Under the pieces are notes generated by a model. The model did no database searches. It worked only from the letters and a program-made list of their open reading frames with translations, and was not told the DNA's origin. From Eledone cirrhosa (Eukaryota), in the NCBI GenBank assembly GCA_964016885.1, contig OZ024752.1:930001-994000 (forward strand): a DNA stretch of 64,000 nt, in the 5' to 3' direction. Both the position numbers and the translations under genes were made by a program. This document shows, in pieces, positions 8,602 through 56,936 of this stretch. Each line of letters starts with the position of its first letter. Within the stretch, counting starts at the first letter, position 1.

Positions 8602-8781
8602 AAATGGCTTCTACAGAACTAGAACTGTTTCATTCGAAGGAAATCATCAGGAAAGCCCCTGAGGATTTCCTCCGAATGAAACAGTTCTAGTCCTGTAGAA
8701 GCCATTTCTATATTAAATATTTATATTCTGCTATGTATTGAGTACCTTGCTTACTGTGGTTGCCCTCGATTGAACCTGGGA
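8602..8781. mobile_element. Fold-back PLE-terminus-like insertion (family X) with HHR cores on both arms
   Basis: Inverted repeat at 8602-8707. Minus arm reads ggctttc-CTGATGA-tttccttcgaat-GAAACAG...CTGTA-gaagcc. Right arm continues to ...gattgaacctggg. Same family at 34644-34808 and a fragment near 61505-61560. Confidence 0.8.
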
Positions 8782-8899
8782 CACATACACACACACATAT
8801 ATATATAACGAAGAAAGTGTGGTAAGGAACCAGGTGGACCATAACGCACCAGAGTACTCGATACTTGGGGTAGTAGAGTGGGTAATAGGAAAAGAGTCA

Positions 8900-8997
8900 G
8901 GAAACCGACGGCTGATCTCCGGCCGTTTCGACAGCTAGATCCGAACTAAACCAGTAGTGTTAGGACGGTAGTGACCTAGCTGAACTTATCAAGGGGT
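8900..8997 (-). ncRNA. Type-I HHR motif with long stem II and U3-A8 core
   Basis: acccc-TTGATAA-gttcagctaggtc...gatctagctgtc-GAAAC-ggc(cggagatca)gcc-GTC-gg. Sister copies (e.g. 33036) have ggggt after GTC, completing stem I. Confidence 0.65.
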
Positions 8998-9281
8998 ACA
9001 GTCTATATATGGGCATCCAATCAAAACATAACAGTAGTATCATATCAAACAATCTTAAAAATTGCTTTTCTTTTGTGTCACGGGGAGTGGTGAAAGATTT
9101 TGGGATGTCATATACATAGTTAAATTCCTTCATAGCGGCGGGGATGGGGTGGCTGAACTTGCCTGTAGAACAAAGGGGAGGGAGTAAGTGACATTTTGAC
9201 CTGTGGATGCCAGGCCGGTCATGCGTTAAGAGAGAATTCTTTACAGCTATCTCTAAAAGGGGTAAGAGCATATGATAAACA

Positions 9282-9725
9282 AGGTGTAACTGTCCGAATA
9301 GATTATCGTGCCCCCTCAACAATAGATGCCAAGAACGAAACGTGGTCTACTAGTGCAATGTGAGGACGGGAAACTCCAACAAGGCTTACATCGGCTTAAC
9401 CGCCTGCGATTTTAAGACCCGGTATTACCAACACCAACATACATTTAGAAACCCGGTCCAGTGACACGCGATAGCACTTTCTGGCCATATTTGGAACCTC
9501 CAAGACAATAATATTATCTACCATCTAAGTTGGAGCATACTTTCCAAGGCAAACTCTTACTCGGGAGGACGCCGTCTGTGTAATTTATGCTCGGAGGAAA
9601 CAATCCAGAAGCTGTTTGCAAAGGACCAACGCTTAAACAAAATGGATGAACTTGTTACGTCGTGTAAACACAGAATGCGTAGGACATATCTTACCTTCAA
9701 ACCCCCTCACGACGCGGGTGGGTAG
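9282..9725 (+). pseudogene. PLE GIY-YIG endonuclease (Neptune-like Cys-rich flanks), inactivated
   Basis: CNCPNRLSCPLNNRCQERNVVY*CNV...AYIGLTACDFKTRYYQHQHTF...LSGHIWNL...CNLCSEE...LNKMDELVTSCKH; contains internal stops. Confidence 0.85.
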
Positions 9726-10335
9726 ACCTCGGCTGTGTCTTTTTCCTATTTACAAACTAAGATAGAGGAAACCCCAAGCTTACTTAGGTAGAAGTAGACA
9801 TTTTTCCTTTTTTTTCTTTTCTTTTTTCTTCATTAGTTACACACTCTAATTACACTTAGGTGGATCATTACTTATCTACACTATTATATTCAGTTTCCAT
9901 TCTACCTTAGGTTAACCGAAATATTTGCACTCCTGTTAATTATACATAGTACCGGCCGAATACATAGCCATGTTTTTGGTTTTTACGGGCGGTTATTATG
10001 GAAGATAATATTAATAAATTACTACATTGTTCTAGTGCATTAGAGTAACTAATAACTACATTTTAATAATTCAATTAGTATTAAATTATATTTGCTTTGC
10101 TCTTTAGCCAATTGTTAGACCTGGCATACTCATTTGCTCTCTACAATATTCTTTGTCTATCACATTTTCTTACCCCCTTTAGAAATAGTTGTAAAGAATT
10201 CTCCCTTAACGCATGACTGGCCAGGCATCCACAGGTCAAAATGTCATCTTACTCCCTCCCCTTTGTTCTACAGGCAAGTTCAGCCACCCCACCCGCCGCC
10301 ATGAAGTAATTCAATTATGTATATGACATCCCAAA

Positions 10336-11070
10336 GCTTGAAGCTTGTCCGCTTCAACAGCAATGCAACACACCCGCTGTAGTTTATGAAGTTGTGGTCA
10401 CTTCCAACCGACCAAATCAACCACAGGAGGTTAAATCCTATGTGGGTATGGCGGAGGGCCGATTCAAAGAACGCTTCCTGAACCACCAGTCGACCTTTAG
10501 GTATCCGGACAGACGTTCATCCACGAAACTCGCGAGCCACGTATGGTCCCTCAAGGACTCAAATATAGACAACTCCATTCAATGGAAAGCCATCACTAAG
10601 TCCAAGCCATACGCAGGAGGCAATCCGTCTTGTGGACTATGTATTGATGAACGAATAAATATTCTAAAGACATTACGCAATAGCGATTGCCTAAAGTCAA
10701 GTAATGAATTCTTCACACGTTGTCCACACGTTTGGAAACACCTCTTACATAACTACAAAGCTCCAGATTGAATTACAACAACATCCTAATTTTCTTATCA
10801 ACTAGAAACTTTTGGACTTTCGCAGTTATCTCCCTTATACCTCTCTCACGCAATTTAGTATTGCCTAAGTGAAGTGACCGTTTCTGTGCATGCGCGTTCG
10901 TACGGTTGTTCCTCCTGTTCCGTATAACCATGTCCATTACGAGCTGAGGATCCGCTAAAGTGAAACAATTGTTCTCGGTATGGTGAACTGTTGTGCTACC
11001 ACTTCTACCTAACTCGTCCCATGGACTGAGTGCTCTACCACTACGGATATTACCGTCCAGTGTTCTACCT
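10336..11070 (+). mobile_element. 5'-truncated Penelope-like element (family Z): GIY-YIG ORF, 3' UTR, HHR, terminus
   Basis: ACPLQQQCNTPAVVYEV...KSYVGMAEGRFKERFLNHQSTF...CGLCIDE...RCPH, stop at 10771. Ends ccagtgttctacct followed by (CT)n. Confidence 0.88.
10941..10976 (+). ncRNA. Minimal type-I HHR motif in the PLE 3' UTR
   Basis: gag-CTGAGGA-tccgctaaagt-GAAAC-aatt-GTT-ctc, with palindromic stem III ACAATTGT. Stem II is weak. Confidence 0.7.
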
Positions 11071-54382: not shown

Positions 54383-54734
54383 TCTTTCATTATAATATTC
54401 ATAGCAGAACTACCATTTCTCTAACGGTTTCCTGATTTACAATCATTATCAGTATATTGTTTCTGTTTGTCGTCCTTTTTAAAGCAATATACTTCTCAAA
54501 CATCTCGCTCCAAACCACTGTTAATTCTCTGAATTACACTTTTACCTACTTTTTCTCAGTCGGCCACTTAACACATAACTTCATTATACGTCGGCTGTCA
54601 CTCATTGTATATCATTTAGAAGACTTCTACCTCATTGCCATCACTTCAGCGTTTAACTAAATAAACACACATTGTTAAGTATTACATTTACACCCTTCTC
54701 TCTCTCTCTCCATCTCACTATATATATTTGATAC

Positions 54735-54887
54735 TCCTTAAGGTTATTTATGGTGGACTGACACAAGTTTCATCGAAAGTTCGATCCCATTGCTTAGCTC
54801 TTGCTGGTCATGTTTCTCGCCATGATGTACCTGCAGGGGAACTGCTTCTCTGGTCACCAGATGCAAAGTGCCGAGTAGGACGTCCAG
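54735..54887 (+). mobile_element. RTE-clade LINE fragment
   Basis: IYGGLTQVSSKVRSHCLALAGHVSRHDVPAGELLLWSPDAKCRVGRPA (LYG.L...LAGH..RH...LLW.P...GRP motif). Confidence 0.75.
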
Positions 54888-55045
54888 CGTCAGACACCAT
54901 GCTTTACAGCATAGTTATGGCCCTTTACGTTCTGAGTTCAGATCCTGCCGAGATTAACTTTGCCTTTCATCCTTACGGGGTAGATAAAATAAAGTACCAG
55001 TAATGCACTGGGTAATTGCTAGCCTTGTGCCAAAGTAGAAACAAT
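54887..55045 (+). mobile_element. SINE family A, 5'-truncated
   Basis: B-box, core and tail. Confidence 0.85.
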
Positions 55046-56089
55046 CATAATCACGACCCCGGTGGCGTTTTGCTGCGATGAGAAATTGGGATGTCTGGAA
55101 CAAGAAGTTTGTGATTCATCTTCGATAGAGGGATGACTCAAGAAGAAGATTGGCTGGTACTATATCTGCTATTTCTAGCCTCACTAGGATCCTGTTACAT
55201 TGTCCTGATATTCACACATTCATTTGTTATTCGAATGACGCATGTCTTATTCAACGCACCATGCTTTTTGACAACATGGTTCGTATTCTATCTATTGAAT
55301 GATTTTTCTATATCCAAAGAAACCATCCCTCATGTGAAGGAATTTCTTCCAATATTGGTTGTTTTATTTTATTGTATTAATTCCAGAAACTGCAGTCAGG
55401 GAGAAAATATGGCAAAAACTTTCTAACATTAGTTTATCTAGATTGTATTCTCCCCAATGGATGTTTTGGCAGTAGATGAACTATGTTATCTCTCTCTCTC
55501 TCTCTCTCTCTCTCTCTCTCTCTCTCTCTCTCTCTCTCTCTCTCTCTCTCTCTCTCTCTATATATATATATGTAGTGAATTTTGTAAAAATATCCAAATT
55601 TGGCAAAGTACTTAGTCTGAAAGACGAGCTGTATTATACATACGAAATTTGGCTAAATTTGCAACATTTACATATATCAAATTGTATAAATATATAACTT
55701 GCATCTAAGATTTACTCAGTCATATAATAAAGTGTATACAAGGGTGAAAAGAGAGAGAAAGGGGGATAAAATAGTTACACAATATATTAAGACTATATTT
55801 GTTTCACAAAGAAAAATTCAATAAAAATATATAATTGCAGATATAATTAGCAGAGATATGATTTATGGAACTTTTCGGATCAAATCAGTACATTCTGTTA
55901 ATGTTGCTTTGGTGAGATAAATTCTGTGCGAAACTTAGTTGTCATCGGCTATTTTGGCGCCAAGACGTTTCGGCGAGAAAATTTTGTTTTTATTGCACAT
56001 AAAAACTAACTTCTCACTCCTAGGAAATTAATCAACTTTAAAACCTGATTTAGGTTGTTAATTAAACTTTGCACGTTGGTTGTACTGTG

Positions 56090-56400
56090 AAGGCTTCTGT
56101 CTTAATGATTAAGTCGTGCAGCTGACGGTCATGGGTTCCATTCCCAGCGGTATAATTTGTCCTTGAGCATGGCAATTTATTTCACATTGTTCCAGTCAAC
56201 TCAGTCGAAAACAATGAGCTGTACTTGTAATTTAAATGGTCAGTTTTGTACCACACTGTGATACGCTGAATCTCCCTGAGAACTACGTTAAGGTAACATA
56301 TGTTTATGAAATATTCTGACACTCCGACGGTAATATCACGAGCCCAGTATTCTGTTGACCAAACAGCTAGAACACTCATCGTCGTGACTGACAGAGGTCC
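56090..56400 (+). mobile_element. SINE family C
   Basis: Homologous to 27948-28255. Confidence 0.7.
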
Positions 56401-56727
56401 AGCACGTGAGCGCGCACACACACACACACACACCCACACACATACAAGCTTACGCGTACGCAGGCGCACTACACGCTGGTTGGGGAAGTATTGACGAAAC
56501 GTGGTCAAGAAAATAATTATGCCTAATGGATTTCTGAGCGTCTTCGAAAAAACAAGCAAAGCTGACAATCATCTGCGACAATCCGGTTAATATATCAGTC
56601 CATTTTGATATCTAACTCTCCTCCTTCCTTTCATTCTCTCTCTCTCTCTCTCTCTCTCTCTCTCTCTCTCTCTCTCTCTCTCTCTCTCTCTATATATATA
56701 TATATATATATATATATATATATAAAA

Positions 56728-56936
56728 CAAAGAAGGTGTGGTAAGATACCAGGCGGACCATAACACACCAGAGTACTCGATACTTAGGGTAGTAGAGTGG
56801 GTAATAGGAAAAGAGTCAGGACCACGACGGCTGAGCTCCGGCTGTTTCGACAGCTAGATCCGAACTCAGATCCGATCAATTCGGATCTAGCTATCGAAAC
56901 GACCGGAGCTCAGCCGTTGAAGTCCTGACCCTTTTC
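56728..56936. mobile_element. Family-Y fold-back element
   Basis: Inverted repeat ~56808-56936 turning at gaactcagatccgatcaattc. Confidence 0.85.

Follow-up and report, generated by a model that had tools for sequence, protein, structure and literature searches.

What decides where a short retroelement copy turns back on itself when it is inserted as a fold-back, and is it the ribozyme that the copy carries? This question is raised by a 64,000-nt stretch of the Eledone cirrhosa genome (C12:930001-994000; hereafter the window, by which we mean this whole stretch), which contains several short inverted duplications with hammerhead ribozyme motifs. The original prediction attributed them to reverse transcription that stalls or switches template at the folded hammerhead and yields a single hairpin-like complementary DNA (cDNA), inserted into microsatellites. 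The inserts are head-to-head pseudo-long terminal repeat (pLTR) ends of Penelope-like elements (PLEs); they lie in (TA)n, and their tail is one-sided. The inner ends are sharply concentrated at one family-specific spot, which is often far from the ribozyme.

The genome has a size of 3.0 Gb and is rich in AT and in microsatellites. A total of 1.89 Mb of DNA was examined, made up of the window, blocks picked arbitrarily (1.15 Mb) and a set of search loci. The search loci came from DNA searches in which tails or upstream parts of the families were the queries, and they lean towards young copies because such searches return the best-scoring ones. Densities were counted on 1.214 Mb of arbitrarily chosen blocks, window included. 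Arm ends were placed by local alignment to natural long copies, with an accuracy of about 3 nt, and all positions are counted from the first base of the hammerhead box; the loop II template of subfamily B2 consists of two near-identical long copies. The counts of 5' ends leave aside arms of less than 80% identity, arms at locus edges, the window's own copies, the loci found with the 8602 copy as query (family A) and those found with upstream sequence as query (family B). Bases at −1 and −2 of the wall were tallied by eye on the first 100 rows listed, or on all 36 rows of the control.

All eight inverted duplications that had been noticed are in the sequence, and seven have two clear arms; the one at 52612 has a tail arm and, inverted to it, no more than a short piece (52683-52742, 77%). 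From the apex outward, one arm exceeds the other by 60-80 nt at its 3' end. As proposed, they belong to four unrelated families, each of which recurs genome-wide: A (8602 and 34716; about 13 insertions per Mb), B (34919, 39807, 52612 and 56808; about 35), C (19286; about 9) and D (50475; about 14). Fold-backs of any kind numbered 131 in the 1.214 Mb.

Inner ends of the arms pile up at a wall

The breakpoints proved strongly non-uniform, as the original prediction had it, with sharp walls in families A, B and D. The inner ends pile up at about −7 in family A, at −41/−42 in family D and at +45, within loop II, in family B. Between −4 and +6 of the wall lay 55 of 106 arms in family A, 124 of 209 in family B and 42 of 92 in family D, as compared to 3, 7 and 0 arms in the 11 nt just above this interval and 11, 18 and 11 arms in the 11 nt beneath it. 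No wall was seen in family C, where 3 of 82 arms lay in the corresponding interval, 0 above and 1 beneath it. Searches of the whole genome with exact patterns found 459 family D copies that join an AT-rich flank at the wall versus 36 at a control position 16 nt lower, and only 5 rows, among the first 100 out of 259, had the templated −2 base, which together make this wall sharp to one or two bases. Family F, which lies beyond the four families first recognised, has 813 copies joining the flank at about −70. Long copies that retain sequence upstream of the wall were found as well (9/106 in A, 18/92 in D, 15/209 in B). Some seemingly simple inserts of family D bear an inverted stub of 2-8 nt at the wall, a miniature fold-back.

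An apex at the ribozyme, which had been proposed for all four families, is seen in family A, where 58 of 106 arms start between −10 and 0 of the box. It fails as a general rule, because such starts were found in none of the 209 arms of family B, none of the 92 of family D and 1 of the 82 of family C. Since the wall shifts relative to the box from −42 in D through −7 in A to +45 in B, and in A and D follows a TATA motif instead, the claim that the folded hammerhead sets the turning point is unsupported. The wall of family D lies 41 nt from the ribozyme box, so that turning point and ribozyme are separated there and the confound of family A is removed. The cut site of the ribozyme was considered as the 5' end of the arms and rejected, as only 4 of 489 arms begin within 3 nt of the predicted cut (A 0/106, B 3/209, D 0/92, C 1/82).

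The wall lies 30 nt below a TATA motif in two families

In the long copies a TATA motif stands 30 nt above the wall in four references of family A (at −36/−37 from the box) and in three of family D (at −71 to −74), and both families have a CCAAT motif further upstream. As TATA plus 30 nt meets the wall in both, the spacing is tied to the wall and not to the ribozyme. The typical distance from a TATA box to the transcription start is 30 nt, and an extra G before the start is expected where the cap gets copied. An untemplated G stood at −1 in 14 of 100 family D rows as compared to 0 of 36 control rows (Fisher p = 0.02), and in 26 of the first 100 of 813 rows of family F, in which a templated C was seen in 16. 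The reading of this G as a copied cap is inseparable from a short snap-back. Start sites of PLEs have been placed within the pLTR (PMC2377424, PMC8557442). In subfamily B2, runs of 4-9 or more T are frequent genome-wide just above the wall and give palindromic junctions of A-runs and T-runs, which could reflect either templated slippage or untemplated tailing of the cDNA.

The two arms of a fold-back differ in tail and reach

One arm with the tail and one without it were found in 144 of 151 pairs. Of 139 close pairs, 61 have a tail-less arm that extends further 5' and 27 a tail arm that does so; in 51 the two end within 2 nt of each other. The tail arm is shorter by at least 15 nt in 32 of these pairs and the tail-less arm in 4 (p = 2e-6); the arbitrary blocks alone gave 10 versus 0 among 34 pairs. 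No overlap at all between the arms was found in 16 of the 139. A cDNA that copies itself demands that the tail arm be made first and reach furthest 5', so the many far-reaching tail-less arms contradict a single cDNA folding back in most copies, and the single hairpin cDNA of the original prediction is unsupported. Junction strings were distinct in 62/68, 85/85 and 27/27 pairs, which argues that the hairpins formed afresh each time; microhomologies at the junctions are common. A variable segment was the same in both arms in 16 of 24 pairs of family A (shuffled mean 3.2) and in 18 of 32 of family B (5.3); in family D this test was uninformative. The arms are thus probably two separately primed cDNAs, and the asymmetry of the arms together with the shared variants fits two primings on one RNA, with the enzyme at the tail site trailing.

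The inserts are pLTR ends of Penelope-like elements

The notion of a retro-derived, minimal form of the inverted pLTR of PLEs stood up: the inserts combine a one-sided tail with an inverted, 5'-truncated copy, and families B and D have a GIY-YIG partner. Insertion into microsatellites was borne out too, with a dinucleotide repeat on at least one flank in 174 of 180 pairs and on both in 126; no clean target duplication was readable in (TA)n among the 180. Fixed symmetric terminal inverted repeats, as in miniature inverted-repeat transposable elements (MITEs), were looked for, and instead each insert has two different outer ends, fixed within the family, one with the tail and one tail-less, and a junction of its own. 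The inserts were rightly set apart from MITEs, which they resemble in being short, abundant, hairpin-forming and inserted in AT-rich targets, and from which they differ in the asymmetric ends, the unique junctions and the link to a PLE endonuclease gene.

In family D, a GIY-YIG frame with a CxxxCxxC linker precedes the pLTR by about 0.9-1.2 kb, and its stop is upstream of the pLTR. One such locus (L196) gave a match to Pfam PF01541 (E = 1e-7), and the distance is the same in a second (L190). In family B, a broken GIY-YIG frame within 9279-10335 of the window carries a CxCX5C linker, CxxC and CxH, and no CCHH; the GIY-YIG-like part, read by its motifs, is at 9279-9725 and in one search locus (L106). 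Pfam gave no GIY-YIG match for family B on the part scanned, and it was uninformative for Hydra-type endonucleases and their full-length relatives. The endonuclease of a neighbouring family (L099) matches proteins of 580-678 amino acids (E ~1e-50), two of which carry RWK and YRDD motifs. A PLE-type reverse transcriptase was not recovered for families A-D, and no GIY-YIG endonuclease linked to the pLTR was found for families A or C; for family A, a coding partner was not found within 1.5 kb upstream of the long copies. Family C consists of head-to-tail units of about 300 nt (in L261, L263, L273, L276 and others), a length within the 150-450 nt of tandem retrozyme units, and carries a type I hammerhead motif; no open reading frame (ORF) was seen.

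The hammerheads are putative, having been recognised by eye from core boxes and stems. Among the best 150 of 371 Rfam matches there was no hammerhead; only 5S rRNA passed the gathering score, the rest being hairpin or microsatellite noise. Minimum-free-energy folding of single sequences did not recover the three-stem hammerhead form. Stem II of family B is long, and its loop measures about 35 nt. In every copy seen of subfamily B1 and family D, the core is of the U3-A8 type (in the window at 8992-8986, minus strand, and 50590-50596), a variant of the hammerhead core.

Comparison with known systems

Hammerheads and promoter motifs in the pLTR and targeting of (TA)n are described as common traits of endonuclease-bearing PLEs; the inserts found here mostly hold the last 60-210 nt, have no ORF and differ in that their inner ends pile up at one position. 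The fold-back architecture is already published: the inverted pLTRs of Adineta Pen2a, Pen2 and Pen3a and of Drosophila virilis Penelope show the same head-to-head 5'-truncated copy, palindromic junction and one-sided tail (PMC3846280, PMC8557442). The tail is 30-40 nt in those elements, versus about 60-80 nt here. By motif, family D resembles Neptune/Nematis-type elements (GIY-YIG after a CxxxCxxC linker), and family B resembles the Hydra clade in its CxCX5C, CxxC and CxH motifs, in the lack of CCHH and in its (TA)n target (PMC8557442). Family C resembles the non-LTR retrozymes of metazoans in its tandem units of about 300 nt, type I hammerhead and lack of a visible ORF (PMC7229834; bioRxiv 10.64898/2026.07.22.740005), and it differs from them in having fold-backs with scattered inner ends.

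In twin priming of L1, two target ends prime on one RNA and their products are joined head to head, with a variable second site and arms that barely overlap. In the inserts, by contrast, neither site varies, and the overlap of the arms usually extends to the 5' end of the RNA. Both strands were cut and extended in vitro with Poseidon PAc, two internal starts of reverse transcription bound the tail, and uncut RNA was preferred (PMC11167929); the accessible part of that account contains neither inverted copies nor end points of synthesis. PLE palindromes have been put down to self-priming, and in the accessible parts of the papers concerned the inner ends are not mapped to a start site (PMC3846280, PMC8557442); how the inverted repeats form and what the hammerhead does are stated as open (PMC8557442). 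Searches of the open-access literature found no mapping of PLE inner ends to start sites and no twin priming of PLEs. What is new here is that wall and ribozyme are separated across families.

Weighing the explanations of the wall and of the two arms

The explanation that we consider probable from these comparisons is that the inserts are pLTR ends of endonuclease-bearing PLEs in (TA)n, that their inner stop is likely the start of a capped pLTR transcript, and that their arms are likely two cDNAs primed from the two cut strands. The GIY-YIG enzyme would nick both strands of (TA)n, and the two 3' ends would then prime at different places, one at the inner start site on the RNA and one 60-80 nt 3' of it, at the tail site, both probably on the same uncut RNA. 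With priming sites about 60-210 nt below the 5' end of the RNA, the leading enzyme would run off the cap, and the trailing enzyme would often halt early; repair may then unite the two cDNA ends through short homology or filler. The apex would meet the hammerhead only where the promoter of a family fires at the front edge of the ribozyme. Such inserts lead to precise predictions for each family (transcript starts at base resolution, two primings, an uncut template) and, if the explanation is true, are a testable record of how PLEs are copied. Far more speculative, and in our estimation rather unlikely, is the extension that some 10^5 such "strong-stop" inserts form an in vivo map of the 5' ends of Penelope promoters and of two-ended priming on one capped RNA, and that stubs in (TA)n regain from their target a TATA-like box 30 nt upstream, are transcribed again and spread as a self-renewing minimal retroelement with the attacked microsatellite as promoter.

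Several observations weigh against a capped start and two primings. The +45 wall of family B was placed after the data had been inspected, the TATA rule of families A and D was noticed in the data and was no blind prediction, and family C has no wall. Families B and F lack a TATA at −30 and have only an initiator-like context, and in family M a TATA-like motif lies only about 15 nt above its few ends. A templated C at −1 in 46 of 100 wall copies of family D implies starts at C as well as at A, and this C has a G before it in 1 of 100 rows. Family B has no excess of G (2/100) and has T-runs above its wall that are unexplained. The −1 G of D and F could also be obtained by a snap-back of 1-3 nt onto a complementary stretch downstream, with a T at −2 in 10 of 14 (D) and 21 of 26 (F) of the rows with G. 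The tail arm reaches further in 27 pairs, as a snap-back would give, and gene conversion could also homogenise the arms. Finally, the wall of family A is the exact 5' edge of stem I of the hammerhead, and in D and F it coincides with the 5' strand of a short hairpin.

These last points are what one would expect if the RNA extended further upstream and synthesis ended or switched once the 5' strand of a local hairpin had been copied, still with two primings: the wall of family A is the first base of stem I, the hairpin strand of family D starts at its wall, the G at −1 and T at −2 of D and F match a short snap-back onto the hairpin, and the few ends seen in families K and M have positions of −8 to −10 as well. 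We nonetheless regard a local hairpin as an unlikely cause, since it does not account for the precise 30 nt by which, in seven references from two unrelated families, the TATA motif precedes the wall, the wall of family B has by eye no such complement, and A instead of T is found at −2 in 5 of 26 (F) and 4 of 14 (D) of the rows with G. Polymerase stalls are, moreover, expected before a stem and not after it. It is very unlikely that, as first proposed, a single cDNA is halted at the folded hammerhead and folds over to serve as its own template. The many family A arms starting within 10 nt above the box, the family B arms in loop II, the common microhomologies and the minority of pairs with the further-reaching tail arm agree with it, and self-priming has been proposed for PLE palindromes (PMC3846280). 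Against it stand the absence of starts at the box in families B and D and the fact that copying itself could yield neither a tail-less arm that reaches further 5' nor arms without shared sequence; a single cDNA is thus contradicted for most copies and may account for a minority. We hold it to be highly improbable that the walls are processed RNA ends (a splice acceptor or a nuclease cut) or the ends of short non-autonomous masters starting there. The sequence around the wall of family B (TTTAG) is indeed pyrimidine-rich, and a branch-like motif precedes it, and introns in the 5' untranslated region (UTR) are described for PLE pLTRs (PMC2377424, PMC8557442), but family B copies retain the AG and have no common upstream exon, which leaves a splice acceptor as the wall of this family unsupported. 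Every family has long copies that retain upstream sequence, and a short master would itself be an RNA start. Least credible of all are MITE-like hairpins amplified from one ancestral fold-back, or asymmetry arising from later deletions in palindromes, which are deletion-prone. One junction string occurs six times in family A, in a set that includes the loci found with the 8602 copy, but the distinct junctions and asymmetric outer ends speak against amplification, and later loss would not be expected to shorten the tail arm in 32 pairs and the tail-less arm in 4, so that this alternative is largely refuted.

A host use of the fold-backs as a source of double-stranded RNA for ADAR or small interfering RNA (siRNA) pathways had also been suggested. 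The arms are 93% alike, so read-through transcripts would form hairpins. An ADAR footprint in DNA was not found, in that 180 pairs showed no strand polarity of mismatches (195 G.T versus 181 A.C), and in the most polarised pair (8 versus 0) the changes were mostly C-to-T in one arm and not A-to-G. These mismatches neither support nor exclude a use by ADAR or siRNA.

The fold-backs of the window

In family A, the first fold-back consists of a tail-less arm at 8602..8658 (minus strand) and a tail arm at 8659..8781 (plus strand). The former has its 5' end at −8 from the CUGAUGA box (box start 8650), on the 5' strand of stem I, which is the TATA+30 wall; the latter starts at −1, has a type I hammerhead-like core from 8659 with a predicted cut after +38, and ends in a tail of about 70 nt followed by an AC/AT repeat. 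The apex is thus beside the box, as had been noticed. The second fold-back of family A (34644..34808) has its tail arm on the minus strand (34765 to 34644) and its tail-less arm at 34759-34808, with starts at 0 and +1.

The four family B copies start in or below loop II, from +45 to +77. At 34868..35036 (B2), the arms start from the +45 wall and from +49, without the CUGANGA strand. At 39807..39987 (B1), the tail-less arm starts from the wall and the tail arm 32 nt lower. The B2 tail arm at 52613..52742 starts at +49. At 56727..56940 (B1), one arm begins at the wall and the other at +2, and 13 nt of filler separate them. In the family C fold-back (19286..19733, a retrozyme-like tandem unit of about 300 nt), the minus arm runs from −102, about 100 nt past the box at 19461 (minus strand), and the plus arm from +7; the junction is near 19563, and not at 19465 where the apex had been placed. 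The family D fold-back (50405..50708) has arms starting at −6 and −3 from the UUGAAAA box and is an atypical copy, as it starts 35-39 nt below the wall of its family. A long copy of subfamily D2 at 760..1046 (minus strand) keeps the promoter-like region upstream, where a TATA-like CATAAAA precedes the wall motif by about 31 nt.

The window also contains fold-backs that had gone unlisted. The largest (8797-10335) has its apex near 9283 and its box about 290 nt from there: a long family B pLTR/3' UTR arm at 8797..9282 (minus strand), which bears a tail and a complete hammerhead with a long stem II and a UUGAUAA box near 8992-8986 and is not truncated at the wall, faces an inverted partner at 9279..10335 (plus strand) in which the broken GIY-YIG endonuclease is followed by the 3' UTR. 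In two others a CUGAUGA box lies about 50 nt from the midpoint (40132-40435) and about 240 nt from the apex (38600-39007, of which 38770-39007 was first delimited as the fold-back). More are found at 6145-6264, 33082-33199 and 41323-41646. The 3' end of a second Hydra-type endonuclease, belonging to family M, lies at 10340-11070 (plus strand), with a hammerhead box of its own at 10944, and adjoins the family B 3' UTR.

Other repeats in the window

A 5S rRNA copy at 32771-32888 (minus strand), above the Rfam gathering score, adjoins a family B stub and is probably dispersed or retroposed. A very abundant dispersed repeat of about 190 nt, likely a short interspersed nuclear element, occurs at 4752-5152, 15522-15725, 20922-21149, 23139-23346 and about 15 more places, in some of them in tandem. 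A tandem array with a period of 52 nt and about 92% identity is located at 59268-59829.

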